A DNA stretch of 64,000 nt, from the NCBI GenBank assembly GCA_007376385.1, contig VMGC01000001.1, forward strand, positions 160,001 through 224,000. Reading direction: 5' to 3'. Shown piece after piece: positions 5,094-55,247 of this stretch. The translations under genes were made by a program, and so were the position numbers. The first letter of the stretch is position 1; the number at the start of each line of letters is the position of its first letter. Below the pieces are notes generated by a model, which did no database searches, was not told the DNA's origin, and worked only from the letters and a program-made list of their open reading frames with translations. Source of the DNA: Parcubacteria group bacterium Gr01-1014_8 (lineage in GTDB: Bacteria; Patescibacteriota; Minisyncoccia; Phycocordibacterales; UBA2100).

Positions 5094-5094
5094 C

Positions 5095-5670: not shown

Positions 5671-5683
5671 TTAAGAATTACGT

Positions 5684-6355
5684 ATGAAATTTGCTACTGT
5701 TGTTTTTGATTTCGACAGTACTCTCGTTGATGTAGAGACGCTTGAGTCAGTGAGTGAGATTGCACTGCAAGGAAGAAAAGATTTCGCTGCCGTGACGGCG
5801 CAGATACGCACCATTACAGAACGCGGCTTGCAGGGAACGATGGCGTTTGATGAATCGCTCGCTCGCCGCATGGCGCTCATTGCCCCGCGCAGAGAGGATG
5901 TTCAGAGAGTCGCGGGCGGGCTTGTCGAGCACATTACGCCGTCAGTGTTGCAGCACAGGGATTTTTTTGCGCACAACGCAGAATGTGTATTCATCGTATC
6001 TGGCGGGTTTGATGAATTGATATTTCCGGTATCAGACACGCTGGGTATTCTTAGGAAGAATGTATTTGCAAATGCCTTTGTGTACGATGAACGCGGTGTT
6101 GCGGTCGGCGTCGACACAACCCGCCCGCTCTCACAGCATCTCGGTAAGGTGAAAGCGTTGAGAGCGGAGAATTTAAAGAGACCGCTTGCGATGGTCGGCG
6201 ATGGTTACACAGATTATGAAGTCAAAGCGCATGGCGAGGCGGATGTCTTTATTGCGTATGTTGAGCATACGCATCGCGACGCAGTCGTGGAACATGCGGA
6301 TAATGTCGCGCTGTCATTCAGCGATGTGCGTCGGTATTTGGAAATGATGTTGTGA
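5684..6355 (+). CDS. HAD-superfamily hydrolase, phosphoserine-phosphatase-like (HAD-IB)
   Basis: Motif I DFDSTL at the N-terminus and a C-terminal GDGYTD (motif IV-like), with a SerB-like layout overall. Confidence 0.75.
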   Translation: MKFATVVFDFDSTLVDVETLESVSEIALQGRKDFAAVTAQIRTITERGLQGTMAFDESLARRMALIAPRREDVQRVAGGLVEHITPSVLQHRDFFAHNAECVFIVSGGFDELIFPVSDTLGILRKNVFANAFVYDERGVAVGVDTTRPLSQHLGKVKALRAENLKRPLAMVGDGYTDYEVKAHGEADVFIAYVEHTHRDAVVEHADNVALSFSDVRRYLEMML

Positions 6356-6365
6356 GCATCTGGAG

Positions 6366-7169
6366 TTAGAGAGACAGTACGTATTGCAGGCGTCGAACGA
6401 GCGCATCATGGATATCGCGAGTGGTGCGAACTTGATTCGTGATCTTGAAATCCACGCCTGTTCGCAAGCGCTCGGAGTAAGAGTTGTGCGTGGCGAGTCG
6501 TTCTGGTGTTGCAACGTAATCGCTCGATGAATGCTGTTTGGCTTCTTGGCCGCAGCGAAGTGCATAGGTATATAGTCGATGTAGCATCTCTGTGCCCTGC
6601 GGGCCGTCGAATTCCCGCAACATTTTTCTCGCTTTGTTCTTGACGAGCTTTTTTTGATCGTCCGTGAGCCACGTGTATCTACTGCCAACTGTATCGGAAG
6701 GAGTGCCCGCGACGTCGATCAAAAATTCAAAATTTCCTGGGATGTCAAAGTTATATATTTGTCCGTCGCTGATGGAATAGTTTTGCAACACGTGAAGGCC
6801 TCTGTCGCCTATGCCAAAGACAACGGCGAGAATAAACATATCTGACTCCGCGACATCTATTTCTGTTGCTGAAGGTTGTCTTTGCCCTCTTTCTGGTGCG
6901 GCCATTGAATAGAAGTTGCCGCGGACTTTGTCATATACTACGGGGCATTGGTTTATGGCTTTCTCGAGAAGCAATGACGTAAAAAATTGTCGTACGGGTT
7001 TGTCGAGCACGAGGTAGAATTTTCTTCCGCTCTCATCTTCAAAAATAGGGTACCCGTAATCTGGTTCATTAGCGATCTTTCGCAGATCCTCACCTTCGAG
7101 AATGGCCCGCGAGTGCGGTATATCATCGGGTGTCGCGTTCGATACTATGTCCTCGTGAGCCATCATCAT
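6366..7169 (-). CDS. hypothetical protein
   Basis: Long minus-strand ORF. I trimmed the start to the MMMAHEDIV methionine cluster (7163-7169), because the ORF-track start at 7433 would overlap the divergent gene at 7231. No recognisable motifs. Confidence 0.45.
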   Translation of the reverse strand: MMMAHEDIVSNATPDDIPHSRAILEGEDLRKIANEPDYGYPIFEDESGRKFYLVLDKPVRQFFTSLLLEKAINQCPVVYDKVRGNFYSMAAPERGQRQPSATEIDVAESDMFILAVVFGIGDRGLHVLQNYSISDGQIYNFDIPGNFEFLIDVAGTPSDTVGSRYTWLTDDQKKLVKNKARKMLREFDGPQGTEMLHRLYTYALRCGQEAKQHSSSDYVATPERLATHNSYSERLRTGVDFKITNQVRTTRDIHDALVRRLQYVLSL

Positions 7170-7230
7170 ACATCGTGGCAGTAAGTATACTGCCGGCGGG
7201 TACGCGGCACTACGTGGTATTATTTTTGGG

Positions 7231-9195
7231 ATGCCGACGAATGGTTCTCCTTCACACGAAGACGAGCGAATTGACCGCTTGCGGCGCGCGATGTACTCGC
7301 GTTCGCTTTCTCCTAACATCAAGGATAAGCCGCGCCGTGAGATGCGCCCCGAGAAAAATCCCGTCGGAGAAGATTGGCAGAGGGCAGAGCCGAAGATACC
7401 AGGCTCGCTCATTGCCCCGCGCGGCATCGGCATGATGCGGCTTGTGATGAAATGGCTTGTCGCGGCTGCGGTAGCATTCTTTGTAGGTGCGCTTGGTTTT
7501 TTTGCATATTATTTCATCCTTGGCGGGGGGAGTTCTCCAGCGTCCCCCGGGAACATCGATATCTCGATCTCGGGCCCGCTGCAAATTGCAAGCGGCGAGC
7601 CGGCCGAATTGCAGGTTGCAATCGTCAATCGAAACCGAACATCATTACAGCTTGCAGACCTCGTCGTAAAATATCCGAATGGAACTCGCTCGCCGACGGA
7701 CCTTCTCACGTCGCTTCCTGATCAACGCATTCCACTCGGGACAATAGAACCCGGAGGGAGGAGACAAGGAACAGTGTCAGCTGTATTTTCCGGTGTTGAA
7801 GGCGAGCACGCGGACATCGCCGTTGAGTTGGAATATCGTCTTGAGAATTCGAGCGCCATCTTTGTTGCGACATCCCAATATCAATTTTTGTTTGCTTCTT
7901 CGCCACTCTCAATTTCTATCGAAGGTAATGATGAGACAGTGTCCGGACAGCCTATTGAGCTCAAGGTGACAATAGCGTCGAACTCTGACACGCCAGTCAA
8001 AGATGTCCTGTTCACGGGGAGCTATCCTTTCGGGTTCACGTTCGGCTCGGGCGAGCCGTCGCCAACGAAGATAGGCGGGGGAAATATGTGGTCGCTCGGA
8101 GATATATTTCCTGGACAAAAACGCACGATCATTTTGCAAGGCACTCTCGCAGGAGAATCCGGAGATGAGCGGGTCTTTCGTTTCAGTGCGGGGACGCGCA
8201 AGTCGAAGACGGACCAGACGATATCTACAACGCTTGCTGACTATGCGCATCATATAACCGTCTCAAAACCATTCCTGGGACTTGCTGTCCTGATCAATAA
8301 AGAAGCGGGTGGGAACACCACTGTCGCTCCTGGAGATTCTGTGACCGTGTCAGTCACGTATCAGAACAATCTTCAAACTGCTATTGCCGACGCGGTCATC
8401 GTCGCGCGTCTTTCGGGCGCTGAGATTGACGGCACGACGGTGCGCTCAACGGACGGATTCTATCGCTCCGCTGATAATGTTGTGCTCTGGGACAAATCAA
8501 CGACGAACGGCAGTTTGGCCACCATCGCGCCCGGGGCGAAGGGGACGGTTAGCTTTTCATTCGTCGTGCCGAAAGATGAAGCGATGCAGGCGCTCCGCAA
8601 CCCTCGGCTCGACATAACTGTGCACGCGGCGGGAAAACGAGTATCGCAAACGGGAGTACCGGAAACTCTGCAGGCGAGCGCGTCGCAAACTCTCCGCTTC
8701 GCAAGCGACTTGCAACTCGCGGCGCAAGGCCTCTATTACACGAATCCTTTCGGGTCGACCGGGCCAATGCCTCCGAAGGCTGGCACGGAGACGACATACG
8801 CGATAGTTTTCAACGTTACCAATACGACAAATAAAGTAGAGAATGCAACTGTACGAGCCACACTGCCGCCGTATGTTCGATGGGTAGGCGTCTACAGTCC
8901 GTCGACGGAAAAGTTGGTGTTCAATCCCAACGATTCGTCCGTGACCTGGCACATAGGCACGATAGAGCCGGGTGCCGGCATCGGCGGCGCTCTGCCGCGT
9001 CAGGCCGCCATCGCGATCGGTTTTACGCCATCCACAAGTCAGATAGGCCAGCAGCCGGCGCTCATACGGAGCATCTCGCTTTCTGGCACGGATGCATCCA
9101 CTCATGTGTCAGTGACGAAAACGACAACTGATATCACGACGAATATAGTCGGCGACCCTGGATTTTCTGCAGCGAACGCGACGGTCGTCAAATAA
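7231..9195 (+). CDS. membrane-anchored extracellular repeat protein (beta-rich, CARDB/DUF11-like repeats; family not certain)
   Basis: 654-aa ORF with an N-terminal TM anchor WLVAAAVAFFVGALGFFAYYFIL, followed by repeated ~100-aa T/S/G-rich beta-type modules. Confidence 0.6.
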   Translation: MPTNGSPSHEDERIDRLRRAMYSRSLSPNIKDKPRREMRPEKNPVGEDWQRAEPKIPGSLIAPRGIGMMRLVMKWLVAAAVAFFVGALGFFAYYFILGGGSSPASPGNIDISISGPLQIASGEPAELQVAIVNRNRTSLQLADLVVKYPNGTRSPTDLLTSLPDQRIPLGTIEPGGRRQGTVSAVFSGVEGEHADIAVELEYRLENSSAIFVATSQYQFLFASSPLSISIEGNDETVSGQPIELKVTIASNSDTPVKDVLFTGSYPFGFTFGSGEPSPTKIGGGNMWSLGDIFPGQKRTIILQGTLAGESGDERVFRFSAGTRKSKTDQTISTTLADYAHHITVSKPFLGLAVLINKEAGGNTTVAPGDSVTVSVTYQNNLQTAIADAVIVARLSGAEIDGTTVRSTDGFYRSADNVVLWDKSTTNGSLATIAPGAKGTVSFSFVVPKDEAMQALRNPRLDITVHAAGKRVSQTGVPETLQASASQTLRFASDLQLAAQGLYYTNPFGSTGPMPPKAGTETTYAIVFNVTNTTNKVENATVRATLPPYVRWVGVYSPSTEKLVFNPNDSSVTWHIGTIEPGAGIGGALPRQAAIAIGFTPSTSQIGQQPALIRSISLSGTDASTHVSVTKTTTDITTNIVGDPGFSAANATVVK

Positions 9196-10770: not shown

Positions 10771-11832
10771 ATGCCGAATGCGACATTTTCCATCTCTACG
10801 GGCACCATCGTCAAAACGCTTGTTGTTCTTGCGGGTGCGTGGCTTTTATTCCAGCTTCGCGACCTCGTTCTCGTCATACTAACGGCAGTTGTCATAGCAT
10901 CAGCTATCGAGCCGGGCATCCGCACGCTTTCAAGGTATCGCATTCCGCGTCTTCTTGCAGTTATCTTTATCTATCTTTTTCTCATTACGCTCTTCTTAGG
11001 CATATTCTATTTCTTTCTCCCGCTCGTTCTAGAAGATTTTGCAACATTCCTCACAGCGCTTCCGAGTTACTTGGATACATTCAGTAACGTAGGCGCTTTC
11101 GATGAGTACTCGCGCATACTAGGGATTCCGGCCCCTGCAGAGATATCGTCGTCTGCTCTGATGGAACAAGTGCAAAATGGCCTTAATTTGAGCGGTTTTT
11201 TCGGCAATGCACTCGGTGCAGCGTCGAGCATATTCGGCGGCGTGCTCTCCTTTGTTCTCATCATCGTTTTTTCCTTCTACTTTGCGGTGAATGAGACTGG
11301 TATTGCAGATTTCTTGCGCTTCATTGTGCCGAGAAAGTACGAATCATACGTCTTGGATCTTTGGAAACGCTCTCAGCACAAAATAGGACTTTGGATGCAG
11401 GGCCAGCTCATCCTTGGATTTTTCATGGGAGTATTCGTGTGTCTCGGTCTTCTTATCATCGGCGTGAAGCACGCGCTTCTTCTCGCTGTCATTGCGGCGC
11501 TCTTTGAATTGATCCCGGTCTTTGGCCCGACGCTTGCCGCTGTTCCTGCCATTGTGATTGGTTTTGCTGATGGCGGTTTCACGGTCGGTGTGCTGGTCAT
11601 CGCGCTTTACGTCATTCTGCAACAGTTCGAAAATCACTTGCTGTACCCTGGAGTCGTAACAAAGGTTGTCGGTGTGCCGCCGCTTCTCGTTATCCTCGCG
11701 CTCATCATCGGGGCGAAGCTCGCCGGATTCTTAGGAATACTCTTGTCGGTTCCTATGGCAGCTGCACTGCAGGAATTTGTTCGGGATATCGAACAGAGGA
11801 GAAAATTTGCAGTGGACGACGAGGGCGTGTAG
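10771..11832 (+). CDS. AI-2E family transporter (PerM/UPF0118)
   Basis: 353 aa, about 8 TM segments, with the characteristic AI-2E central and C-terminal hydrophobic pattern. Confidence 0.8.
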   Translation: MPNATFSISTGTIVKTLVVLAGAWLLFQLRDLVLVILTAVVIASAIEPGIRTLSRYRIPRLLAVIFIYLFLITLFLGIFYFFLPLVLEDFATFLTALPSYLDTFSNVGAFDEYSRILGIPAPAEISSSALMEQVQNGLNLSGFFGNALGAASSIFGGVLSFVLIIVFSFYFAVNETGIADFLRFIVPRKYESYVLDLWKRSQHKIGLWMQGQLILGFFMGVFVCLGLLIIGVKHALLLAVIAALFELIPVFGPTLAAVPAIVIGFADGGFTVGVLVIALYVILQQFENHLLYPGVVTKVVGVPPLLVILALIIGAKLAGFLGILLSVPMAAALQEFVRDIEQRRKFAVDDEGV

Positions 11833-36266: not shown

Positions 36267-36986
36267 ATGAAATTTCTCGTGTTTCAGCATGTGCCACATG
36301 AGCATCCGGGGATGCTGGGGGATGCGGCAAAAACGTGGGGAGTAGACCTAACCGTCATCGAGCTATGGAAACCGTACATCATGCCCGTTGCAGATGAGTT
36401 TGATGCGCTCGTTATCATGGGAGGACCTATGGGAGTGTACGAGGGGAAAGAGCAGTATTCGTCAAAAGACGATGAGCTCGCGTTTATAAAAGAGAATCTT
36501 GGAAAAATGTCGGTGATAGGGTTTTGCCTCGGCGGGCAACTGCTGGCGCATGCGCTGGGGAGCCGTGTGTACCCCAATCTCACCGACGGAAAACGGCAAA
36601 AAGAAGTTGGATATCATACTGTCGAACTTACTGCCGAAGGCGCTGCTGACCCGTTATTCAAAGGTTTTTCGAGTCCAATAAAAGTATTGCAATGGCATGG
36701 TGATGCGTTCGATCTCCCGAAAGATGCGACACTTCTTGCATTCTCGTCCGCCTGTCCGAATCAGGCGTTTCGTTGGGGCACGAACGTATATGGCATGCTT
36801 TTCCACAATGAGTTCACGCCGGAGATGATAAACATGCAGCTTTCGATAGATAAGGAATGGATCCATAAGGATTACGAAATAGACGAGCGGGCGCTTCGGG
36901 ACGAAGCGCGCGCCAATGCGCCCCTTATGCGTGAACAGTGTAATCGACTATTCGGCAATTTTTGCGAGACAGCGGCACGACATTGA
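36267..36986 (+). CDS. class-I glutamine amidotransferase-like protein (GATase1/peptidase C26-like), stand-alone
   Basis: Nucleophile-elbow GFCLGGQLL (GxCxGxQ) and a downstream MLFHNE (HPE-like) motif. I chose the start at MKFLVFQH. Confidence 0.7.
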   Translation: MKFLVFQHVPHEHPGMLGDAAKTWGVDLTVIELWKPYIMPVADEFDALVIMGGPMGVYEGKEQYSSKDDELAFIKENLGKMSVIGFCLGGQLLAHALGSRVYPNLTDGKRQKEVGYHTVELTAEGAADPLFKGFSSPIKVLQWHGDAFDLPKDATLLAFSSACPNQAFRWGTNVYGMLFHNEFTPEMINMQLSIDKEWIHKDYEIDERALRDEARANAPLMREQCNRLFGNFCETAARH

Positions 36987-42131: not shown

Positions 42132-43110
42132 TCGTGCCAAATACGATAGTCCTTTGACAACTGAAGAACGACACAATTCTTGCTCGTAAGAGCAGGAGAA
42201 AAAGAAAGAATAAGAAATTTTCTGAAAAGAAAATTTCTTTTCGCGCCGTCGCTCGCGGATCATGAGAATAAATTCTCGCGATACCGCTCGCTCGGCGCGA
42301 TCAACAACATTGATTCGGCTATTGTCTTTGGCCGGATCAGTGCAGGAAAAAATGTATTTTTGCGCAACCACTTTTCACAACCACAAGGTTGTAGAAAAGT
42401 GCAGTCCTGTAATAGGGAAAGCAAAAATCAAAAACAATCCGCCTTCGCACACGTTGTGTGCTATGGCGGGACAAAGAAAGTCCCGACACGCCAAAAGGTG
42501 TGACGGGCGCAATGCTTGTCCGTCTTGTAGCGGACAAGCAAAGTAATAAACCAATAACGCGGTTCTCAAATTTCCAAACGGGAATTCTGAGAAAGGGCGT
42601 GCGGCGGATGCCTTGACAGAAGAAGGCGATGAAGGACGCAGTTCGGCGGCGATACGCTTCGGGGAGGTGCCAAGCAACCTTCGATCCGGAGATTTCCGAA
42701 TGGGGAAACCCCATAGAGCAACCCTCTATGACTCATGCTCTAAACAGCATAGAGAGCAGACCTTGGGAAGTGAAACATCTCAGTACCAAGAGGAAAAGAG
42801 ACCAATAGGTATTCCCTTAGTAGCGGCGAGCGAAACGGGAAAAGCACAAACTCAGCCACAAAATCGAAGCGCGATTTATTTCGCGAATCGATTTTGGGGA
42901 TGGGGGTTATAAGGCTACAGCGCTAGCAATAGGTAGAGTAAAAAAATGCTTAGTTAGAGGAAGCGCCTGGGAAGGCGCGCAACACAGGGTAATAGCCCCG
43001 TACTCGAAAACGAAGCATCTCTATGGCTGTAGTTCTTGAGTAACTCGAGACATGAATAGCTCGGGTGAATTTGCCGGGACTAACCGGTAATGCTACATAC
43101 TTCTTCTGAT

Positions 43111-43153
<43 letters not shown>

Positions 43154-44660
43154 GGTGAGGGGAGTGAAATAGACCTGAAACCGCATGCCTACAAGGAGTC
43201 GGAGCGGGCACCACAGTGCTCTTGAAATTTTTTGCAGAATTTTTGCAAAAGATCTTTTCGGGTGCAGTGTGGTGTCCGTCACGGCGTGCCTATTGAAGAA
43301 TGAGCCAACGAGTTAATGCATACAGCTGGCTAAGCCCTTTTCGGGTGGAGCCGTAGCGAAAGCGAGTGTGAATAGCGCGACTATAGTTGTATGTATTAGA
43401 CCCGAAGCCAGGTGAGCTACCCATGAGCAGGCTGAAGTTTATAGAAATATAGATGGAGGGCCGAACCCGTAGATTGTGCAACATCTTGGGATGACTTGTG
43501 GGTTGGAGTGAAAAGCTTATCGAACCTGGTAATAGCTGGTTCTCTCCGAAAGAGCTTTCGGGCTCGCGTCATGGATTACATATGGGGGTAGAGCACTGGA
43601 AGAAGCGGATAGGCCGAAAGGCCACTGCCTCTATCAAACTCCGAATACCATATGCGTACCGTGGCAGTTAGACGATGGGGGCGAAGCTCCATTCGTCAAA
43701 AGGGAAACAGCCCAGACCGCCAGTTAAGGTCCCTAAATCTATGCTCAGTGCATTTCCAAGGAGGTGAAATTTCACAGACAGTGAGGATGTTGGCTTAGAA
43801 GCAGCCACCATTCAAAGAAAGCGTAACAGCTCACTCACTCAGAGATTTCGCGCCACAAATGATCGGGGCTTAAGCATAGTACCGAAACTGCGGATTCAGT
43901 ACGTCTTCGGATGTACTGTCTGGTAGGAGAGCGTTCTCTGTGCGATGAAGGTAAAGGGGTGACCCATGCTGGAGCGCAGGGAAGTGAAAATGTTGGCACG
44001 AGTAACCGCAAGGCAGGTGAGATTCCTGCCCGCCGAAAGAACAAGGTTTCCTTCGCAATGGAGATCAACGAAGGGTTAGTCGGTCCTAAGCCAATGGCGA
44101 ATGCCGCAGGCGATGGATTCATGGTTAATATTCCATGACTCGGAATTGGTGCGATGGAGTGACGGAGTGTTGTACCTCAAGCATATTATGGATTTATGTT
44201 CAGGCCGTGAGGATGCTTTTCAGGAAAATCCGGAGAGCACAGTCCAAGCGGAGTGGAAAAGTGGAGGCCTCGGCCGAAACTGATTTGAGGGAGCACGCTT
44301 CCAAGAAAAACTTCTAAGCTTATAACCAATGACGAACCGTACCGCAAACCGACACAGGTGTTCTGGTCGAATAGACTAAGGCGAACGGGTGAGAGATGCT
44401 CAAGGAACTCGGCAAAAAAGTGGCCGTACGTTAGCAATAAGGCCTGCCCAATACAGTGATGTATGGGGCCGCAGATAATTATTCCCAGGCGACTGTTTAC
44501 CAAAAACACAGCTCCCTGCAAACTCGTAAGAGGAAGTATAGGGGGTGATGCCTGACCAATGCCGGAAGGTCAAGTGTGGTCGGTCTCATATAGCAATATA
44601 TGTTGCTGGCACTACATAAGCCCCGGTCAATGTCGGCGATAACTATAATCGTCCTAAGGT

Positions 44661-45360
44661 TTCCCGCTTAAGAAATTGAGCGGGGAAGGACTGGGACGAT
44701 CATAGAATCGAATAAACAGCGAAAGAAAATACCAAAGCTGCCTCTCTGTGCAGTAATGCACAAGTGGTCCTAGAAACATGGCTATATGCTGGAAACCCTA
44801 TGGTATAATTATTCCATAGATGAGTAATCAGCAGGAAAGGCCAGAGATGAAAGGGTGGATCGTCGGTTTTACCGACGGCGAAGGATGCTTTTCAATAAGC
44901 ATGTTTCGCAACAAAACCACCAAGTTTGGTTGGCAAGTATTCCCAGAGTTTGTAATAACTCAGGGAAAGAAAAGTTTGCCAGCACTCGAAACTTTCCAAA
45001 ACTTCTTTAAGTGCGGAAAGATATACGAGAACGCTAGGTACGATAATCATCGTGAATATCTGTATCGATACTGTGTACGATCAATTTCGGATTTGCGGGA
45101 GAAAATAATCCCGTTTTTTCGAAAAAACAAATTGTATACAGCCAAACAAAAAGATTTCGAACTGTTTGCAGATGTCATAGAAAAGGTGTATCGAAAAGAA
45201 CATCTTTTAGAATCGGGATTGCGAGCGATAGCGCGCAAGATCGAACAGATGAATCGCAAGAAGAAATCAACATTTCTGGAATCCTCAGAGACTACACGCC
45301 ATGCCCCTAAATCTAAATAAGATCGGGTGAAGATATAGTCCAAAGGTAATAGGAACCTAG
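44661..45360 (+). mobile_element. group I intron 1 (after the E. coli U1917 equivalent) encoding an intact LAGLIDADG endonuclease
   Basis: The upstream exon ends in T, the intron ends in G (omega-G), and the downstream exon resumes at AGCGAAATTCCT. Conserved R-like (cagagactacacg) and S (gaagatatagtcc) core elements are present. Confidence 0.75.
44820..45320 (+). CDS. LAGLIDADG homing endonuclease (single-motif, 166 aa)
   Basis: Motif IVGFTDGEGCFS with the pattern characteristic of LAGLIDADG homing endonucleases. The 3' end of the ORF overlaps the intron R element. Confidence 0.8.
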   Translation: MSNQQERPEMKGWIVGFTDGEGCFSISMFRNKTTKFGWQVFPEFVITQGKKSLPALETFQNFFKCGKIYENARYDNHREYLYRYCVRSISDLREKIIPFFRKNKLYTAKQKDFELFADVIEKVYRKEHLLESGLRAIARKIEQMNRKKKSTFLESSETTRHAPKSK

Positions 45361-45372
45361 AGCGAAATTCCT

Positions 45373-45681
45373 AGAAGACTGGGACTATCAGTCAAAAACT
45401 ACTGATAGCAAATTCTGCTATATGCTGGAAACTCCGAGTATCCAACAGTACCCTGACGAAATGGAAGGGTAAAAATCTGTTGGTGCGGACAATCAGCAGG
45501 GAAGTCGTAATTGACCCCTCAACGACTACACGCAGAACTCCACGAAGCTCATCAATCCGATGCTGTTTCGGGAGGTGATATAGTCTGAACTGCATGGCGA
45601 CATGCAGAGTTTGGCTCGCGCCAAACCGCTTCAAACAAATTGAAGTCATTATTCTCACTAGAGAATAGTAAGTAACAGAAT
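45373..45681 (+). mobile_element. group I intron 2a (ORF-less; carries a decayed homing-endonuclease N-terminal remnant)
   Basis: Follows the 12-nt exon agcgaaattcct. Contains the R element tcaacgactacacg, the S element gtgatatagtc and a terminal G before the exon TGTCTGGT. Its 5' region is similar to intron 1 (gactgggac..gctatatgctggaaac). The remnant reading frame (aat cag cag gga agt cgt aat tga) parallels the homing-endonuclease 1 N-terminus SNQQERP. Confidence 0.5.
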
Positions 45682-45689
45682 GTGTCTGG

Positions 45690-46149
45690 TAACTGGATTG
45701 CCAGTTAGTACAGCGATGTACTACAAAAGATCCGCCTGTCAGCAATGACGGTAGTAATTCGGCTTATAACGGTGGAATCCTACTCGGAGCACTTTAGACG
45801 AGGTGCGTTGATGAAAGGATAATACCGTGGGAAGTCTTGTGAGTTTCGTGGAGGGCAACCTCCGTGCGAGAGCGCCTCGCCCGGTTGAGGGCGGTCGGTC
45901 GGCATTGGTGCTGACTGTCTGATCTGGAGCCTCTGTCCAGGCTCTCGCATCAATCTTCTCATCATGGTGATGGGAACTTCCACGAAACTCGCAATGACCC
46001 CGTAACGACTTAGCGCGAAAGCGCTGGAAGTGTCTCAAAAACACTTAACACGCCGACTCTGCAATGCGCAGAAGAAGATATAGTCTAATGCCCGAAGTAA
46101 TTCGGGGAGAGTGTCATATTGCGCGAAATATGACGATCAAACTCAAATG
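45690..46149 (+). mobile_element. group I intron 2b (ORF-less; carries a decayed homing-endonuclease remnant homologous to the intron 3 endonuclease)
   Basis: Follows the 8-nt exon tgtctggt. Contains the R-like element cgtaacgacttagc, the S element gaagatatagtc and an omega-G before the exon AAGTTCAGACG. The remnant reading frame is KDNTVGSLVSF..., compared with MDNTVGSLTQL in intron 3; the ATG has been lost. Confidence 0.5.
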
Positions 46150-46699
46150 AAGTTCAGACGCGCACGAATGGTATAACGACTTGGGAACTGTCTCGAGCAT
46201 TTGCCCGGTGAAAATACAAGGGCGGTGAAGATGCCGCCTTCCTGCAGCTAGACGAAAAGACCCCAGAAGCTTTACTGTAATTTGGTATTGAGGATACGAT
46301 TTTTCCGCGTAGCGTAAGTGGGAGGCTTTGAAGCAAGGATCTCGGTTCTTGTGGAGCCGTCAATGCAACACCACTCCTAAAAATTGTATTTTCTAACTTC
46401 CATAGCAAAACTGTGGAAAGACAGTACCTGATGGACAGTTTCGGTGGGGCGCTGTCCTCCTAAAAAGTAACGGAGGAGCCTATTAAGGTCACCTAGGTGC
46501 GAATGGAAACCGTACCGGTAGTGCAATGGCAAAAGGTGGCTTGACTGCGAGTCGTACGTGACAAGCAGGCGCGAAAGCGGAGCATAATGAACCGATGGTT
46601 CGCATTAGATGCGACCAAAGATTAACGGATAAAAGTTACTCTGGGGATAACAGGCTGGTTTCGCCTAAGAGTCCAAATCGACGGCGAAGTTCGGCACCT

Positions 46700-47542
46700 T
46701 AACAAATCGGGGTGCGACGTAAGCAATTACGTAGCTTGGCTCACACATGAGACCAAGAACCAACATGTGTGCAGTTCAAATCGTGGCTTATAACGGTGAA
46801 CTCCATGGTATTATAGAACAATCGTTCTATAGTATATGGACAATACCGTGGGAAGTTTAACTCAATTACAGCGATCAATAATTATCGGTAGTCTCTTAGG
46901 TGATGGCTACTTACGGATCGTACCGCGCAGATACAATGCGTTTCTCGAGATCAATCATTCGTATTCACAAAAAGAATATGTTGATTGGACATTCGAGATG
47001 CTCAAATCGATCTGTAGAAGCGGTCCGAAGATGCGAAACGGAAATGGTGTGCGAATTGCATACCGTTTTACGACTCGTCAAATGCCGGAAATCACCGAAT
47101 TGTTCAAAGTGTTTTATGCCAATGGCAAGAAATAAATTTCGAACAATTTAAGATTAGATCCGATAATGCTTGCTGTATGGTTCATGGATGATGGAAGTAG
47201 GTGTAGCGTTGAGAACGTGTACCTTAATACTCAGCAGTTTAATTTCGATGATCAAGAAAAATGCAGGGCAATGCTCATGCGGCTTGGTATCGAAACAACT
47301 CTCAATAAGGACAAGAAGTATTTGAGAGTGAGGATAAAAACATCCTCAATCCCAAAACTTCATAAAATTATCTCACCGCACATCATTCCATCCATGAAAT
47401 ATAAATTGGGTTATAACCCCGTAGAGACTCGCTTCTTCGGAAGCGGAGTTACTGACTCTGTAATGAGCAGTAGCTAACACGCCACCTCCTTTCAATAGAA
47501 AGGATGATGATATAGTCCGATCCTTCCAGTAATGGAAGAAAA
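46700..47542 (+). mobile_element. group I intron 3 (near the E. coli 2499/2500 equivalent) with a double-motif LAGLIDADG gene
   Basis: The upstream exon ends ...GGCACCT, the intron ends ...cattG, and the downstream exon resumes CGATGTCGGCTCATC. The S element is gatgatatagtcc. Confidence 0.7.
46836..47477 (+). pseudogene. double-motif LAGLIDADG homing endonuclease interrupted by a single in-frame TAA (47133-47135)
   Basis: First motif IIGSLLGDGYL and second motif LAVWFMDDGS are in the same reading frame. The 30 nt between the stop and the next ATG also read in frame (ISNNLRLDPI), consistent with one ancestral ORF of about 213 aa. Confidence 0.7.
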
Positions 47543-47786
47543 AATGACATTGCGATGTCGGCTCATCTTAGCGCGGGGCTGGAGAAGGTCCCAAGCGTAT
47601 GGCTGTTCGCCATTTAAAAAGGTACGTGAGCTGGGTTCAAACCGTCGTGAGACAGGTTGGTCTTAATCTGCTGTAGGCGTTGATTCTTGAGGAGACTCAT
47701 TTTTAGTACGAGAGGACCGAAATGAACTGACCTCTGGTCTGGGGGCTGTAGTACCAACTGCATCGCCCCGTAGCTATGTCGGGATT

Positions 47787-47819
<33 letters not shown>

Positions 47820-48002
47820 GACTCCAAGATTAGGAATCGTTATAGACTCGTGGGAGATGACCACGTTGATAGGCACCAGGTGGAAGCGCAGTAATGCGTT
47901 GAGCCGAGGTGTACTAATTAGTCGACAGAATTCTCGAAAGGAATTTTGGGAGTCGCGATACTGGTTTATTGCGACGAGCGAGGACGAAGCGAAAATTTAT
48001 TG

Positions 48003-48256: not shown

Positions 48257-48367
48257 TGTTCTGGTGATTTATCGCTGGGGTCACACCTGTTCTCATTCCG
48301 AACACAGTAGTTAAGCCCAGTTGAGGCGATGGTAGTCGCAAGGCGAGAGTAGCTAGTCGCCAGAACA
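48257..48367 (+). rRNA. rrf: 5S ribosomal RNA
   Basis: ctggtga...tcacacctgttctcattccgaacacagtagttaagcccag...gatggtagt...gagagtag...tcgccag. Helix I pairs (ctggtga / tcgccag) and loop C is conserved. Confidence 0.85.
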
Positions 48368-48385
48368 AAGATTTCAAAGCAACAA

Positions 48386-48412
48386 AAACTCCCACTCCAG
48401 GAGTTTTTTGTT
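48386..48412 (+). terminator. intrinsic terminator after 5S (aaaaactcc-cact-ccaggagtttttt)
   Basis: Hairpin followed by a T-run. Confidence 0.5.
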
Positions 48413-48808
48413 GTGATACAGTATTTTCGTGACCGACCGAATGCAAAATCAACCTCAAATGCCGAAGGACGGGGAAGCGTTGAAAGATGTGCAGTGCGGT
48501 TGCTGCGGGGAGCTTGGTAATGTAACCGCAGCAATAGTGCCGCCTAAAAAACGCTGGAGAAGAGTCTAAGTATAAATTTGAGTGCGATCCGAGCAGTACT
48601 AACGATAAGGGCAAACAGGGTTGCGGCATGTCCGTTACGATTTCAGTCAAATAACTTTCACAGAGAAAAGTACCTTTGGACGCATATGTTGGCGCTGAAA
48701 TGGAACTCGCGTATAAAAAAGACCTAGGCTCGCTGCACCATCCGAAGTAAACATTAGATTCGGCGCGTTATACTTGCATTAGTCTCGCGGTACGCGGGGC
48801 AATCTATC

Positions 48809-51190
48809 ATGCTGAAACAAGATGAGCATTGGTGGTCGCCGGGGGTGCGTAAGCGGATCATGGACGGTCCCGCCGCTGATTCGAAAATTGTGGACAGCGG
48901 CGTAGGGTCCAAAACGCCCGAGGGAAGCGGATCGTGGTCCGAAACTGCGCAGCAAATTCTCGACTCTTTGTTCGCTACTAAAAACAGCAGGAGTTTCGAG
49001 GAATATCTCGAACGAAACTTCCTTACAGAACCTCGTATCTCCGACAAAGTGACATTACAATCACTAGCATATGCCCGCGACAAGCTGGCGGCGTTGGGTA
49101 GCGACCGCCGTAACAGAGAAGACGGCACAGATGCAGAACTTATTCAAAATGCGCATGTCGCACTCGTCCGAGCAATTATAAAGGTGCGTGTCGCGCAGGA
49201 ATCCACACCCAAATCGAATAAAGAACGGGAGCCGTATAAAGACCCGACTATTGTCACAGCAGCAGAAGTCCAACAATCGGCGATAGACACGCAGCGAGAC
49301 TTGCATATTCGCGCCGAACAGACCGAGCATGAAATTCGGGTTCTTCTGGATAAGTTATTTCACGCCAGTATTCTTGGGAAAAAAGAAAGACAATCAGTCG
49401 TAGATGAGATTGAAACCTACGTAAAAGAAGCCAAAGAGAGTATCGATGAGAGGCGCTATGCGTATCTGCAGATGTCGCTCGCTTCAGTTTGGCACTCGCT
49501 TCAGGATATTGAGAGAAAAAAAGAGCCAAGCGCTGAACTACTTGCAGAACTATCGAAACGCGCCTACGACGAACTCTATGGCAAGTTACGGGAGACTGCG
49601 CGCGCGCTTTTTAATGTTGAGCTTGATTCGTACGCACTTTCTGACGAGCGGGATGTTATTTCTGTTTTCACGAATACAAGCCACACATCTCGATTGCATG
49701 AGTTGGGTTTGACAGCGGAAGAAATTGACTCGTTCCGCATCGCGGCGGGGTTTCTCCAAAAACACCAATCAGATTATCGGTTGGTCGGCTCATCGGCATT
49801 TGCCACGAAGCTATTTCTAGGTTCGTTCAATAAAGTTACGTGCAGAAATCATATAGAAAATGTCACCGTTGCGCTTGATAAAGCACTTGTGCGTCGAATG
49901 AGAGATGAGCTCGTTCAATTACTTCCCGAGCTTTGGAATGCGGGGGTATATAAGTACACACCTGAAGTCATCATAGATAAAATGATGGAAAAAGCCGACG
50001 CACAGTATCAAGCGGGATTTCGGAATAGTTATTCAAGATTGCGCCCAAAACTGGAAGAAGCATTCCGCGATGCAGAAGAGAGACTTCGAGCAAGTGGCGT
50101 TGAAGCGACGGCTCGCAAAGTGGAATTTAACGAGGAAGAATGGGCACTCGATGCGATATTGAGCGAGAATCGGGCACGGCTTGAATATCTTGAATTCATC
50201 AATCCATCGAACGGTGCCGCAGAAAAAGCGAAATTCTTTGATGCGTTGAAAAGAGGCGAAGAATATAATCCGCAATTAGAATACGCGGTGAAGGAATCTC
50301 AGGAGCAAGCACTCAAGCTTGCGTCGCATACAATAGAAAGAGCAGGAAGAATGGTGAAAACGGGTCCAAACGTCGATATATTCGTTCGGGAAATAGTAGT
50401 GCAGGAGCGTACACTTGAGTTTATACGAGGCATTGGCGCGGAACACTGGTCGCAGCGTCGTGCCGAACGACTGTTCGGTCGCATCGACAGATTTCTTCTC
50501 GATGACACAGTTGCCGAGCTCAAAGAAATGCCAAGCGGTTTTTTTGAGAACGGAGGAGAGAATCTTTCGAAAGACGAGGTTAGAACGCAGGCAATGAAGG
50601 CTTTGAAAGATGTTGGCGCTTCAGATTGGTCATTCGACTTTCATGCGCAAGAAAATGTGCCATCTGTCGTGCTCGCGAGCAGGAAGCAAGTCTTTTTCCA
50701 GAAACGCGAAGTGTATCCGGAACAATTCGTGAACATTCTCATAGCGCATGAAATTTACGGCCATGTTGCACAAGATAATAATGCTTTGAAGCACGGAGTC
50801 GGACTTCTTCAGAGCGGTCTCGGCAATTACGAGCCACTGATGGAGGGTTTTGCGCTTGATCAGGAACGGAAAGTAAATCCTCTCACGGAACTTCGCATTA
50901 AGTTCTACTACGCTGCAGTCGCGCATGCAGCTAAACACTCCTTGCATGATACGTTCCAGTATCTCAAACGATGGCTTCCCGATGAGGATGCTTATGCACT
51001 GGCGTCACGGGTGAAGCGGGGGATGCGGGACACGAGTAAGCCCGGTACGTGGCTTAAGGACAAGATATATTTGGAGGGACTAACAGAACTGGATCATATG
51101 TCGGCTGAAGATCAGGCGCTTGTGAGGCACGGCAAGTTTGAAGGAGCTCTGACGGCGAACGTTCGTCGGCTCGTTTCCAATCGGCTCTAG
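48809..51190 (+). CDS. DUF1704/QEGLA-family-like protein (putative zincin-type metallopeptidase) with a ~550-aa helical N-terminal extension
   Basis: The C-terminal region has HExxH (ILIAHEIYGHV) followed about 25 aa later by ...PLMEGFALDQE (a QEGLA-like motif). 793 aa. Confidence 0.55.
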   Translation: MLKQDEHWWSPGVRKRIMDGPAADSKIVDSGVGSKTPEGSGSWSETAQQILDSLFATKNSRSFEEYLERNFLTEPRISDKVTLQSLAYARDKLAALGSDRRNREDGTDAELIQNAHVALVRAIIKVRVAQESTPKSNKEREPYKDPTIVTAAEVQQSAIDTQRDLHIRAEQTEHEIRVLLDKLFHASILGKKERQSVVDEIETYVKEAKESIDERRYAYLQMSLASVWHSLQDIERKKEPSAELLAELSKRAYDELYGKLRETARALFNVELDSYALSDERDVISVFTNTSHTSRLHELGLTAEEIDSFRIAAGFLQKHQSDYRLVGSSAFATKLFLGSFNKVTCRNHIENVTVALDKALVRRMRDELVQLLPELWNAGVYKYTPEVIIDKMMEKADAQYQAGFRNSYSRLRPKLEEAFRDAEERLRASGVEATARKVEFNEEEWALDAILSENRARLEYLEFINPSNGAAEKAKFFDALKRGEEYNPQLEYAVKESQEQALKLASHTIERAGRMVKTGPNVDIFVREIVVQERTLEFIRGIGAEHWSQRRAERLFGRIDRFLLDDTVAELKEMPSGFFENGGENLSKDEVRTQAMKALKDVGASDWSFDFHAQENVPSVVLASRKQVFFQKREVYPEQFVNILIAHEIYGHVAQDNNALKHGVGLLQSGLGNYEPLMEGFALDQERKVNPLTELRIKFYYAAVAHAAKHSLHDTFQYLKRWLPDEDAYALASRVKRGMRDTSKPGTWLKDKIYLEGLTELDHMSAEDQALVRHGKFEGALTANVRRLVSNRL

Positions 51191-52272
51191 CCCTTCTTAT
51201 CAGGAGTACGGTCGGGCACGATAGTCACAACTGCCGGTATGAGGCCGCCACTTTGTGAGATGTTGAGCTTTTCACCGGGCAGGTCGCGGCAAGTCCTCGA
51301 CATAAAAAATATGTTGTATTTTCCCGAGTGCTTGTCTTTCATGAGATACATGTCAAGGCCGTACTTGTACGTTACGCCCTTGAAATCAAATGTTGCAATA
51401 TCAATGAATTCTTGCAGTGCATACACTACGCCCCCCGGGTTTTTTTCTTTGTCCGGCACGGGAACTTGTTGGCCGGGAAAATACACATCGTCGCCCGCAA
51501 GGCCAACACTGGCTTTACATACCCAGCCTTCAGGGACGACAAAAGTCTCGCCGGGCACGATGACTTTCTTCTGCCCTTTGGGAAGAATTGGTGATTCGAT
51601 ATCCGTAAGTTGTGATTTGTCGCCTGCACGTACTGTGCCCTGTTTATTGACCACGTCCGCCAAAGCCTCTCGTATTAAATGGTGAGAATCGTTCAATTTC
51701 TGCAACTCGGCATCCAGTGTGAATCGTAGTGCCTTATTCATATCTATGCCGGCATCTACTGCTGTCTTGATGTTCTCAAGATCGGCAGGTACTTGTGTGA
51801 ATTTCCCTCCCCACATGTGATCACTAGCTATACGAGCTTCTGCCTCGCCGACTCTCTGGACTCCTGTGTTCTCATTCGACATTACCCATGTCGGAGTCGT
51901 CATATCTTCCATGTTTTGTCCTATCGTGTCGAACGTTTGCATTTCTCCGTATGCTGCGTGTGCAATTGCGTTGAACATAACGCCGCCGGGGATCTGAGCA
52001 TTTATTTCTATGAGACGCATATCCCCGTTCTTGGTCGGTGCGAGGTCAACCCGCATAAATTCCGGTGTATTGAGCAGCCCTGCTTTCTTTGAAACCGTTT
52101 CGACAACTCGTATCGTTTCATCGACAACTCGTCTGGGAAGTTCAACATACATCGGGGGGAAAGTCGGGAATACTTTCTCGCCAATCCTTACGTAGTTATG
52201 TAACAAATCCGGCATCTCGGGCTGTCTTTCAGGATCTGGGTGTCTGACATCTTTCGGCCGCAATTCACTCAT
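51187..52272 (-). CDS. glutathionylspermidine-synthase-like (GSP_synth/YgiC-YjfC family) ATP-grasp amidoligase
   Basis: N-proximal motif FMRVDLAPTKNGDMRLIEINAQIPGG matches the family motif R-x-D-x-A...G-x-x-K-L-L-E-x-N-A-D-T-P. 361 aa, convergent with the DUF1704 gene with a 4-nt overlap. Confidence 0.5.
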   Translation of the reverse strand: MSELRPKDVRHPDPERQPEMPDLLHNYVRIGEKVFPTFPPMYVELPRRVVDETIRVVETVSKKAGLLNTPEFMRVDLAPTKNGDMRLIEINAQIPGGVMFNAIAHAAYGEMQTFDTIGQNMEDMTTPTWVMSNENTGVQRVGEAEARIASDHMWGGKFTQVPADLENIKTAVDAGIDMNKALRFTLDAELQKLNDSHHLIREALADVVNKQGTVRAGDKSQLTDIESPILPKGQKKVIVPGETFVVPEGWVCKASVGLAGDDVYFPGQQVPVPDKEKNPGGVVYALQEFIDIATFDFKGVTYKYGLDMYLMKDKHSGKYNIFFMSRTCRDLPGEKLNISQSGGLIPAVVTIVPDRTPDKKG

Positions 52273-52442
52273 AGCGGAATAATATCACAGCCCGTTTTGC
52301 GCTTGTCTTGCACAGCTAAATTGCAAATGTTAGCGTGTCCGAATGCATCCAAACGGACTGCAGAACATCATTTCGATTATTACTCCCGAGGAAGCGGGGG
52401 AATTTTCGATTGTGTAGGAAGTAGGTAAACCAAAACAATCAG

Positions 52443-52466
52443 AAGCCCCCGCAAGGGGCTTTTTTG
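52443..52466 (+). terminator. intrinsic terminator hairpin (gcccccgc-aa-ggggc followed by TTTTTT) in an ORF-free region
   Basis: Read directly from the sequence. There is no upstream + strand CDS. Confidence 0.45.
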
Positions 52467-52775
52467 ATGCTTCGGATTCGGCTCTTGCAAATCGAGATTC
52501 GAATCTGGGGTCGTCAGGGCTCCAGCCGGCTTGAGCCGGAAACTCGAATGGTCTGGAGGACCCATGGGAAAGTATCCCAAACCTGATCCTTTTGCTGCGC
52601 CATTTGGCATCAACTGTCGGCATGCCTCCGATTCGGAGCCGAGGAAGCCGAAAGTCCGCCAACGCCGGAGGATGAAAATCCGAAAAGCGAAAAAAAGCAA
52701 AGCATAAGGCAGCGCTCCACCGCCTCCTTTTAAGCTAAGGCTCGTCGCGCGACTCGTTCGTGCGGCGGCCTTTCT

Positions 52776-52813
52776 TTATAAAAACTCAGCCGTAGCGCGA
52801 GGAGCGCTACGGC
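52776..52813 (-). terminator. minus-strand intrinsic terminator (gccgtagcgc-gagga-gcgctacggc, then UGAGUUUUUAU on the minus strand)
   Basis: Perfect 10-bp stem. The U-run lies on the minus strand. Confidence 0.45.
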
Positions 52814-53160
52814 CAAGGACGTCACTCCCAGATGATTTCGACATACTCGTGTGGGCGAGCTGGGTCGACACCTGCGGGACGCAGAACCACCCTCCGTGGG
52901 GTGCGCCGCCTCCGAACGGGTGAGTTCGGGGCAGACCCCGACGCTTTCGCGTCGTCAATCCGGCTCAGCGCCAAGATTTCTTGTTTATCAGTCGTGCAAT
53001 TCCTGGGCATTTGCCACCTCGCTTTCAGCACAGGCCGTGTTCCACCGGAATGGTCATACACGGAGTCTATGCGGAGTATTCTGCACAGGCCCCGGGCCAC
53101 CACAAGGGCACTTCCATTTTTGTAACGCCTTGCGGCTAACAAAAATTGGTCGCACCCATT

Positions 53161-53190
53161 AAAAAAGCCCTCCTAGGTGGAGGGCTTGTC
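53161..53190. terminator. hairpin terminator (gccctcc-tagg-tggagggc), T6 on the minus strand and a weaker T-rich tail on the + strand
   Basis: Read directly from the sequence. Confidence 0.4.
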
Positions 53191-53341
53191 TGTATCTACT
53201 TTATTTTTCTCAACTAGACACAAGCAAAACCTCCACCAGAGTGGGTAAGAAGGAGGCTAAGGAGAAGACCTTTTATATACTTGTCGGACATGGATTTGAT
53301 TGTATTGGACATTTGTATCCTGTCAACGATACAATCTGTTC

Positions 53342-53632
53342 ATGAGCGATAAGTCGTGGAAGCCGGATGCGCAGAAGCTGCCAACTCTTTCGCGAGATAC
53401 AGCCAAGAAAATGATTGACGATTTTCCAACGATCAAGAGTGCGTATTTGGCTGAAACAAGCAAAGAGGGAGGCTTGATACTAGCGACAGAACTCGCGAGG
53501 GGATATTTAGAGGATATTTTAAATCTTCCCGAAAAAGAACGGAACACGTGGGATTCAGAAATAACAGGTCTCGGAAATATTCTGTGGTTTTGGGAGCATC
53601 GACATGATCCGAATCAACGCGAGCCTCGCTGA
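53342..53632 (+). CDS. hypothetical protein
   Basis: ORF trimmed to MSDKSWKPDAQ.... No motifs recognised. Confidence 0.35.
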   Translation: MSDKSWKPDAQKLPTLSRDTAKKMIDDFPTIKSAYLAETSKEGGLILATELARGYLEDILNLPEKERNTWDSEITGLGNILWFWEHRHDPNQREPR

Positions 53633-54494
53633 GCATAGTGGCAGGCAACGGAGCAAACATCAGGACTCGCAACTTATAGAATCCATGACAAACGCATTTT
53701 TCGGACGACCCAGAGAGCCAGACAGAGCGGAACAACCGCTTTCGCATGAAGACATGGTGCGCATTGCCTCGCAGTTGCATCATGATGCAATATTATCCCC
53801 GAAGAGATTTGATGACGCTGCCGATGCACGACTGCGAGTCGTCAAAGCATTTGCGAATCTCGCAATACAAACGAAGGAGTATCTCAACACGTCGTGCGAT
53901 ACCCTGATCATCGACCAAAAGAGCGGCAATTTGCCGGGTCTGTTCTTCAAGCAATTGACGGCAGATATCTACCGCAATACGGGTAAGGTCGCACCTGCTA
54001 TCCACGACATCGTTGCAAGTCTTCGTCTTCCGGATCGCGTCAATGTTCTTGAAACATACTTTCGAGACGCTTTTGAGAATCAATTGATCGGCGACCACAT
54101 TCTCATCGTCACTGAACACGCAATATCTCGAAGTAGTGCGGGTCTCGTAACGTTTGCCGATATGATTAAGCGGATTGGCGCAGAGTTTGGGAAAGAGCCC
54201 GAGATCCGCTTTGCCGCGGTTTCAGTTGGCAGAGAATTCCCGACACGTGCGCAGCGGGCGGACAAGGGGCTTGAAAATTTGTATCAATGGTACGCCGGTG
54301 AACTTGGATACTCCATCGGCTCAATGGCGTTCCACCGGGCAAATGTAAATGATCTTGCGTATATGGAAGGAAGCGCTCGTCCTCGGATAGTACCTTCTTC
54401 GGAAGCGGGTCCGGATGCCGAGGCCGCAAAAGCCGACATGATCATGCTCGCCCGTGAACTCGCTCCGCTTGTCCTTGGTAAAAAATCAACGTAA
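53604..54494 (+). CDS. hypothetical protein (start uncertain)
   Basis: 296-aa ORF. It contains a segment DHILIVTEHAISRSSAGL weakly reminiscent of a phosphoribosyltransferase PRPP loop. Not assigned to a family. Confidence 0.4.
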   Translation: MIRINASLAEHSGRQRSKHQDSQLIESMTNAFFGRPREPDRAEQPLSHEDMVRIASQLHHDAILSPKRFDDAADARLRVVKAFANLAIQTKEYLNTSCDTLIIDQKSGNLPGLFFKQLTADIYRNTGKVAPAIHDIVASLRLPDRVNVLETYFRDAFENQLIGDHILIVTEHAISRSSAGLVTFADMIKRIGAEFGKEPEIRFAAVSVGREFPTRAQRADKGLENLYQWYAGELGYSIGSMAFHRANVNDLAYMEGSARPRIVPSSEAGPDAEAAKADMIMLARELAPLVLGKKST

Positions 54495-54503
54495 GGTAGG
54501 CAA

Positions 54504-55247
54504 ATGGCGGCCAGAATTCTCGTCATACAATTCCGCTTAAGAGATCAGGCGCGCGCGGAGCAGCAGCCCTTAGAGCGCGTGCTCGGAAGCGAAAAATGCT
54601 CACTGGTTTTTAAGAACGCTTTTGTGGAAGGTATCGATTGGAGTCGCCCGGAACGTGAATTGCATGGATTCGATGCGGTCATTTTGTCAGGCTCCGGCGA
54701 CCTTTATTTTGATGGCGGTTATGCCGAGACTCACCACGGTCGGATAATTACCAGCAGGCTCGCGGAAAACGCAAAACCGTTTGCTCAATACCTCATAGAA
54801 AACAATATTCCGACCCTCGGCATCTGTTTTGGCCATCAACTGCTCGGGTATGCGGCAGGTGTGAATGTCGGCCATTCACGAATTGAGAGTAAGACAGGCA
54901 CCTACGGGGTACGGTTGACGGACATAGGAAGAACAGATCCCCTCATGAAAGACATCTCAGACCGTTTTGCAGCTCATTACGGGCATAAAGACGTACTCTT
55001 TGATCTTCCGCCCGGTGCGGTGGTGCTTGCTCATGGGGAAGACAAATGCCGCTATTCAGCTCTTCGATACGCTCCGCGCGTCTACAGCGTGCAATTTCAT
55101 CCAGAACTTTCGCGAAAGGAGATCGAGAACATCATGAGGAAATATCCCGAATATATGCCTGACGATAAGGATTGTGATGAGTTGTTCGAAGATACGGAAG
55201 AAGCCGAGCATATTTTGAAGAATTTCGTTCGTGTAGCGACACGCTAG
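54504..55247 (+). CDS. class-I glutamine amidotransferase-like protein (GATase1/peptidase C26-like), stand-alone
   Basis: GICFGHQLL (GxCxGxQ) and VQFHPE motifs; 247 aa. Confidence 0.7.
   Translation: MAARILVIQFRLRDQARAEQQPLERVLGSEKCSLVFKNAFVEGIDWSRPERELHGFDAVILSGSGDLYFDGGYAETHHGRIITSRLAENAKPFAQYLIENNIPTLGICFGHQLLGYAAGVNVGHSRIESKTGTYGVRLTDIGRTDPLMKDISDRFAAHYGHKDVLFDLPPGAVVLAHGEDKCRYSALRYAPRVYSVQFHPELSRKEIENIMRKYPEYMPDDKDCDELFEDTEEAEHILKNFVRVATR

Follow-up and report, generated by a model that had tools for sequence, protein, structure and literature searches.

A predicted amide-bond ligase and a predicted metallopeptidase, encoded by adjacent genes in the genome of the Parcubacteria group bacterium Gr01-1014_8, appear to form one functional module. 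The genes lie in a 64,000-nucleotide (nt) stretch of contig VMGC01000001.1 (positions 160,001 to 224,000), which we call the window and whose coordinates we use unless another locus is named. An open reading frame (ORF) at 48809-51190 on the plus strand encodes 793 amino acids (aa; product G01um10148_208), in which an orphan N-terminal extension precedes a C-terminal MATCAP-family metallopeptidase domain, recognised by PF08014 and by human MATCAP structures. On the minus strand, the ORF at 51187-52272 encodes 361 aa (G01um10148_209), assigned from its fold and from profile-profile comparison to the circularly permuted ATP-grasp carboxylate-amine ligases, as an unclassified family. Because the two genes are neighbours in almost all genomes that carry the ligase, the enzymes probably attach a chemical group to the terminus of a peptide or protein and take it off again. 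By analogy with GspS and with the tubulin cycle, one would write and the other erase a single C-terminal amide, and the peptide or protein that carries it would be encoded away from the pair; we give this reading a probability of roughly 55%. From the conservation of linkage and of catalytic motifs, from co-divergence and from fold class, we infer a common target bond and the kind of substrate.

Linkage of the two genes across genomes

We compared every ligase family member with enough contig to read its context, 11 loci including the window. A MATCAP gene adjoins the ligase in 10 of them, and PF08014 is also present in partner genes outside the window. The ligase gene precedes the MATCAP gene in five loci (L001, L002, L004, L010 and L012) and follows it in three (L005, L007 and L008), always co-directionally; in L009, a GCS2 gene sits between the MATCAP gene and the ligase gene. 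The pair-bearing loci span 23-47% ligase identity, 23-56% GC, both gene orders and at least two genetic codes, the L012 genome being TGA-recoded. Ligase and MATCAP genes are separated by up to 193 nt or overlap by as much as 4 nt, and the pairwise identities of the ligases correlate with those of their MATCAP partners (Mantel r 0.80, p about 1e-4). In an all-against-all ORF comparison, no third gene was common to the window and the 10 other loci; only the ligase and the MATCAP gene recur. An earlier note on this DNA, made from the sequence alone, had proposed a ligase-hydrolase couple and named a lack of conserved linkage as the finding that would speak against it. The linkage found here is the decisive result: it points strongly the other way and supports the couple.

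The window is the sole convergent case. Its palindromic tetranucleotide CTAG (51187-51190, both strands) gives a stop codon to each gene, so that the 3' ends converge and overlap by 4 nt; ORF calling and the sequence bear out both reading frames and this overlap as first described. An independent Logan assembly (L019, from run SRR8863434) repeats the arrangement, down to the shared stop-codon tetranucleotide, so the convergent layout is not an artefact of a single assembly, and we rule out that origin. The 793-aa form is identical in the NCBI, ENA and Logan records. The convergent layout had been thought to weaken the functional link. That worry is answered, because every other pair-bearing locus is co-directional and the genes there are often nearly abutting. 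Given these co-directional genes, and given that in L002, the closest relative with a clean junction, the MATCAP gene begins only about 15 residues before the conserved domain, the window layout is best read as a local inversion of one gene, together with the gain of the N-terminal extension. In L001, the closest long relative (the same contig is also present as L003), a 10-N scaffold gap at 11109-11118 falls at the start of the MATCAP gene, where the N-terminus and the exact ligase-MATCAP junction are uncertain.

The remaining locus, L011, has no MATCAP gene. There (634-7830) the ligase is clustered with GCS2, a glutamine amidotransferase (GATase)/Peptidase_C26 gene, an AMP-binding DdaG_C-like ligase and two M20 peptidases, in what looks like a set for the assembly of small peptides of a dapdiamide-like or gamma-glutamyl kind.

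A previously undescribed family of predicted permuted ATP-grasp ligases

The ligase family became visible through an exhaustive HMMER profile search of 1.84 billion cluster representatives, which returned 14 hits, 12 of them real family members; a word-indexed search had given two relatives. None of the 12 members has a Pfam family, and an NCBIfam scan of the window ligase gave no match. The family is very small and previously undescribed, and the current profile libraries (Pfam, NCBIfam) miss it. Further searches added no members: a metagenome scan with the ligase alignment and a plasmid tblastn with the ligase found no match, a genome scan with the alignment recovered only the L001 contig again, and a PDB sequence search with the ligase profiles returned nothing significant.

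Ten positions are invariant in all 12 members (R74, D76, E89, P95, N209, K219, K253, Q287, R326 and G342), and N91 and N337 are nearly so. The segment RVDLAPTKNGDMRLIEINAQIPGG (51982-52053, minus strand), verified by translation as the earlier note reported it and placed by alignment, carries the R-x-D ... E-x-N strands predicted to bind Mg and phosphate. The motifs of the C-terminal half (51247-51516, minus strand) fall in invariant or nearly invariant columns: V-x-K253, a Gly-rich loop, Q287-E288, R326 and N337-x-S-x-x-G342. In the order of these motifs, R-x-D...E-x-N stands first, followed by V-x-K, the Gly-rich loop, QE, R and N-x-S-x-GG. Because the R-x-D/E-x-N strands are C-terminal in the classical fold and come first here, this order is a circular permutation of that in classical ATP-grasp. 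Its N-terminal segment also aligns weakly with the C-terminal RvD..EvN end of VanA/Ddl.

Over 299 columns, the ligase profile aligns collinearly with that of YgiC and GspS (E 9.6e-6, probability 63%): RVDLAPTKNG..LIEINAQIPG falls opposite RLDLAWDGTG..KLLENNADTP, and VCKA opposite the VVKP of YgiC/GspS, so that K253 aligns with the VVKP lysine. We take the roles of the ATP and Mg residues from positions invariant in YgiC/GspS and from general knowledge of GspS, rather than from a model with bound ligand. An AlphaFold2 (AF2) model built from a 4-sequence alignment (pLDDT 73.6, pTM 0.76) has permuted ATP-grasp ligases as its exclusive structural matches: the best 15 Foldseek matches all fall within the class that holds GspS, YgiC, trypanothione synthetase, eukaryotic glutathione synthetase (GS) and Cp1B. 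From these models and alignments, the 361-aa protein is predicted to be a ligase of the circularly permuted GspS/YgiC/eukaryotic-glutathione-synthetase class. The suggestion of a GSP_synth/YgiC-type ligase therefore holds at the level of fold and superfamily, in structure and in profile-profile comparison, but not at that of the Pfam family. PF03738 (GSP_synth) gives the window ligase 13.1 bits (E 0.053) against a threshold of 29.3, over residues 72-115 only, and the best-scoring family member, P0015, reaches 19.1 bits. The sub-threshold Pfam matches of the ligase (GSP_synth, R2K_3 and Dala_Dala_lig_C) all lie on residues 52-115.

The MATCAP-family peptidase and its N-terminal extension

PF08014, formerly DUF1704 and now MATCAP, matches residues 481-765 of the 793-aa protein with 65.4 bits (E 6e-18, threshold 27 bits), which upholds the earlier assignment of the C-terminal domain to DUF1704. 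Human MATCAP structures 7z5g and 7z6s match the protein with E 2e-9 across the catalytic core. We place this gluzincin domain at about residues 451-793 (50159-51187, plus strand), where identity to ligase-adjacent MATCAP genes is 30-46%. The AHEIYGH and MEGFA/EGFAL blocks are present on translation, as first noted. The metal-binding and catalytic motif is HEIYGH (H647-E-I-Y-G-H652; 50747-50764, plus strand), which is HExxxH and not HExxH as it had been read; it aligns with HEIGTH of human MATCAP (PDB 7z5g). HExxxH is the extended metal motif described for, and typical of, TMCP/MATCAP (PMC10499314). By translation and alignment, MEGFA (50840-50854, plus strand) is the counterpart of QEGLA/EEGLA, with E679 as the predicted third metal-ligand glutamate. 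When the window protein is aligned with seven MATCAP genes adjoining ligase homologues, H647, E648, H652, E679, Y700, Y701, R734, K736, K750, Y754 and E756 show no variation, and as far as sequence can tell, the active site of the MATCAP domain looks intact.

The peptidases that partner the ligase form one clade, with 26-50% identity internally and 18-26% to other bacterial MATCAPs, both QEGLA and fused forms. The window protein is placed outside the clade of Vibrio and Sinorhizobium QEGLA proteins, and it has MEGFA instead of the QEGLA motif. With the TIGR02421 "QEGLA motif protein" equivalog (NCBIfam) it scores 71.2 bits against a cut-off of 338.65, far enough below that it is a divergent relative of the QEGLA family and not a member. 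A word-indexed homologue search with the whole 793-aa protein gave zero relatives.

The N-terminal extension (48809-50143, plus strand) is probably helical. It ends where the TIGR02421 match begins, at residue 451, and where the alignment of orthologues begins, at about residue 445-450. That it is novel, as the earlier note had said, stands: it is missing from all nine orthologous partners, which measure 335-449 aa, is seen in this genome only and has no Pfam match. Its length, put at about 550 aa, had to be revised to about 445 aa. Its codon-usage score is 0.20 in frame, vs 0.23 for the long ORFs of the window, and -0.2 to -1.0 in the off frames; because codon usage fits coding only in the annotated frame, we regard the extension as translated. 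A single-sequence AF2 model of the 793-aa protein (pLDDT 40.7) is unreliable and suggests a helical tendency at most. The extension resembles neither the N-terminal region of a long Sinorhizobium MATCAP nor that of the L017 ATP-grasp fusion described below; at BLAST sensitivity, we reject a decayed ATP-grasp domain as its origin. The extension would have been gained by the peptidase in the lineage of this genome, and one can speculate that it may serve targeting or regulation.

Proposed function

The characterised relatives of the ligase all activate a terminal carboxylate, which for GspS is the glycine carboxylate of glutathione. By analogy with the GspS/YgiC class, the window ligase would activate such a carboxylate with ATP as an acyl-phosphate; attack by an amine, from an amino acid or a polyamine, would then yield an amide bond. 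The MATCAP domain, by analogy with MATCAP/TMCP, would remove the C-terminal residue or group. The MATCAP/TMCP enzymes are carboxypeptidases and also remove glutamates added after translation (PMC10499314). On the ligase side, YgiC and YjfC are described as peptidyl-polyamine synthetases in a paper that cites Pederick 2023 (PMC12568646), and Cp1B joins epoxysuccinate to an L-amino acid (PMC12568646).

What might the substrate be? A small peptide is favoured by the relatives of the ligase and by the GCS2 and M20 contexts in L009 and L011, and a protein tail by the characterised MATCAPs, all of which act on protein C-termini. The absence of a linked substrate gene is compatible with a housekeeping protein and with a common metabolite alike. 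A more specific proposal, which we consider speculative and rather unlikely as a whole, is that a rare permuted ATP-grasp family has co-evolved with its own MATCAP subfamily, giving a minimal two-gene writer and eraser on the C-terminus of a housekeeping protein. Prokaryotes would then have their own equivalent of the tubulin cycle (tyrosination/detyrosination or glutamylation), run by a ligase of another scaffold, and the eraser in the window would bear a 445-aa orphan targeting domain.

Several findings weigh against a writer-and-eraser module. The ligase passes no Pfam threshold, and its AF2 model is moderately confident (pLDDT 73.6, from four sequences). Co-divergence is equally expected if both genes merely track the species tree. 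The window genes are convergent and so cannot be co-transcribed. In L011, the ligase occurs without MATCAP in a setting that resembles small-molecule peptide metabolism rather than a write/erase cycle. Comparison of the neighbourhoods and of small ORFs brought up no candidate substrate gene, nor any conserved small flanking ORF near the pair that could be a precursor peptide.

Some of these findings suit an alternative in which the enzymes act sequentially in small-molecule peptide metabolism, and not in opposition. The ligase, with GCS2 in some genomes, might build a gamma-glutamyl or glutathione-like tripeptide, or a peptide-polyamine conjugate, and the peptidase might trim the precursor or recycle the product; or the peptidase might expose a carboxylate that the ligase then extends. 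Every structural relative of the ligase acts on small peptides or acids, and in L009 and L011 the cluster includes GCS2, itself a carboxylate-amine ligase. The company of the L011 ligase (a DdaG-like ligase, a GATase and two M20 peptidases) recalls a cluster for small-peptide assembly, and the ORF comparisons revealed no substrate protein or precursor peptide conserved near the pair. However, GCS2 is found in 2 of the 11 loci, neither of them the window or one of its closest relatives, and protein C-termini are the targets of the only MATCAP enzymes characterised so far. One ligase with one hydrolase, moreover, is most simply explained by opposition on one bond, as in GspS. On balance, we consider sequential action possible but unlikely.

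In the earlier note, two GATase1/C26-like genes of the window were to join the ligase and the zincin in a three-part system that makes and removes a gamma-glutamyl-type modification. Both are genuine class-I GATases, at 54504-55247 (PF00117, E 1e-20) and at 36267-36986 (PF00117, E 7e-17), but only the former passes the Peptidase_C26 threshold. A GATase/C26 gene does belong to the cluster of one distant ligase locus; this is L011, the locus without MATCAP and the only one where we saw a GATase near the ligase. A GATase adjoins the pair in none of the nine other MATCAP-containing loci, though, and comparison with the related loci, L011 included, gave no homologue of either window GATase at E<1e-5. 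The nearer of the two lies 2.2 kb off, past a 1-kb stretch free of ORFs and in tight linkage with its own upstream gene (53604-54494), and its best NCBIfam matches are generic GuaA-like amidotransferases. A conserved third component was therefore not borne out, and we hold such a system to be very improbable. Least credible of all is that the adjacency is incidental, with two unrelated genes abutting by chance in this genome. The convergent orientation and overlapping stop codons of the window would, alone, be compatible with chance. The recurrence of the pair in 10 of 11 loci, across low sequence identity, a GC range of 23-56% and two or more genetic codes, is not what chance would give, and MATCAP is also found fused to or beside other ATP-grasp ligases.

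Relation to other ligase-peptidase systems

These other couplings take several forms. A Sinorhizobium americanum plasmid encodes a MATCAP protein of 725 aa and, 10 nt after its gene, a classical GshB/RimK-type (GSH-S_ATP/RimK) ATP-grasp. In L017 (616-3051), an 815-codon ORF with TGA as sense fuses a classical ATPgrasp_ST domain to MATCAP, as identified with Pfam. In L018 (2159-4633), an 833-codon ORF, also with TGA as sense, is a close homologue of that fusion by sequence, and of the three further ORFs downstream, two are RimK-like ATP-grasp ligases (Pfam). Both L017 and L018 are low-GC TGA-recoded metagenome contigs; their gene is a Rosetta-stone fusion that links ATP-grasp ligases and MATCAP peptidases. 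A Vibrio QEGLA protein is fused instead to an N-formylglutamate amidohydrolase domain. Because both adjacent (Sinorhizobium) and fused (L017, L018) forms exist, coupling of MATCAP to ATP-grasp is a general bacterial theme, and the window pair is, as judged from its sequence, a version of this known ligase-plus-peptidase theme with a permuted and so far unclassified ligase clade. The permuted pair, together with the adjacent and fused classical forms, indicates that the coupling arose with at least two ligase architectures, which argues that it is functional.

Peptide ligase/peptidase systems of DUF1704/QEGLA proteins with RimK/GshB-type ATP-grasps were reportedly predicted by Iyer et al. in Mol Biosyst in 2009; in the literature that we searched, we found no paper on the pairing of bacterial MATCAP/DUF1704/QEGLA proteins with ATP-grasp. 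Like those systems, the window couples a MATCAP-family metallopeptidase bearing HExxxH and xEGxA with a predicted ATP-grasp amide ligase. Unlike them, its ligase is circularly permuted (GspS/eukaryotic-GS class) and has no Pfam or NCBIfam model, and its peptidase belongs to a separate clade (18-26% identity to QEGLA and fused forms) with MEGFA, not QEGLA. Nor does the pair fit the DUF1704 type with RimK and GNAT partners to which the earlier note compared it: the permuted ligase has no RimK match, and the genes called on the 13.9-kb Logan contig that carries the pair include no GNAT.

GspS, with its synthetase half and its amidase half, may be seen as an analogue of the window ligase and peptidase. 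In contrast, the hydrolase of GspS is a fused CHAP amidase and that of the window a separate zincin. The window ligase is only 11-14% identical to Escherichia coli GspS (glutathionylspermidine synthetase/amidase) and its paralogues, the peptide-spermidine ligases YgiC/YjfC, is smaller (361 aa), and lies below the GSP_synth threshold. The cycle of TTL/TTLL and MATCAP/TMCP on tubulin may offer another analogy, a purely functional one, in that an ATP-grasp enzyme adds C-terminal residues and a MATCAP-family metallocarboxypeptidase removes them. TTL, however, has the classical ATP-grasp fold without permutation, the analysis brought up no tubulin-like substrate, and the N-terminal extension is unrelated to the microtubule-binding regions of human MATCAP. 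Other members of the permuted class, Cp1B/Cp2B of the fungal E-64 pathway and the eukaryotic glutathione/homoglutathione synthetases, serve dedicated small-molecule pathways without a MATCAP partner, and their sequence similarity to the window ligase is undetectable.

Human MATCAP was recognised as the tubulin detyrosinase only in 2022. To our knowledge, no substrate has been established for any bacterial MATCAP/DUF1704 protein, and the literature searched named none. Here a MATCAP peptidase comes obligately with a small ligase, in a compact module of two genes, and the structural relatives of that ligase all extend terminal carboxylates; the ancestral chemistry of the family would thereby become accessible to experiment. 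The pair would be of high interest if it were shown to act on a protein C-terminus.

Neighbouring features

Directly upstream of the pair lies a 23S-5S rRNA unit, with a 23S gene at 42579-47938 that contains intron insertions and a 5S gene at 48260-48365. The 23S gene spans 5.36 kb, vs 2.9 kb for the model, and includes a group I intron (45363-45607) and three LAGLIDADG ORFs. One of these is a LAGLIDADG_1 (44820-45320), and the other two (46836-47135 and 47166-47477) are split halves of one LAGLIDADG_2 endonuclease. Intron-rich rRNA genes are common among bacteria of the candidate phyla radiation.

On the other side, the 296-aa ORF at 53604-54494 ends 10 nt before the GATase gene at 54504-55247 and may be its functional partner. 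A 110-aa ORF (53300-53632), which the public record gives as 96 aa, runs in another frame into the start of the 296-aa ORF. Neither ORF has a Pfam or NCBIfam match.

The stretch directly upstream of the ligase (52273-53340), about 1 kb without ORFs, is unusually rich in stable hairpins. It has no Rfam family match, and no gene is called there in the public assembly. Terminator-like sites in 48300-53700 number 16, against 6.1 +/- 2.4 expected, and the strongest of them cluster in this stretch, which includes a 14-bp stem with a T-run at 52817-52785 (minus strand). The minus strand of 52280-53160 folds with z = -4.7, and the ORF-free stretch may hold one or more structured RNAs. At its far end, a near-consensus promoter-like site (TTGACA-16-TACAAT, 11/12; 53326-53299, minus strand) precedes about 130 nt closed off by a strong intrinsic terminator (53187-53165, minus strand). 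In Rfam, the minus strand of 53155-53330 gave only weak matches to Phe/Trp leaders, below threshold (E 0.013-0.03); this segment folds with z = -2.9 and is a candidate small RNA or leader.

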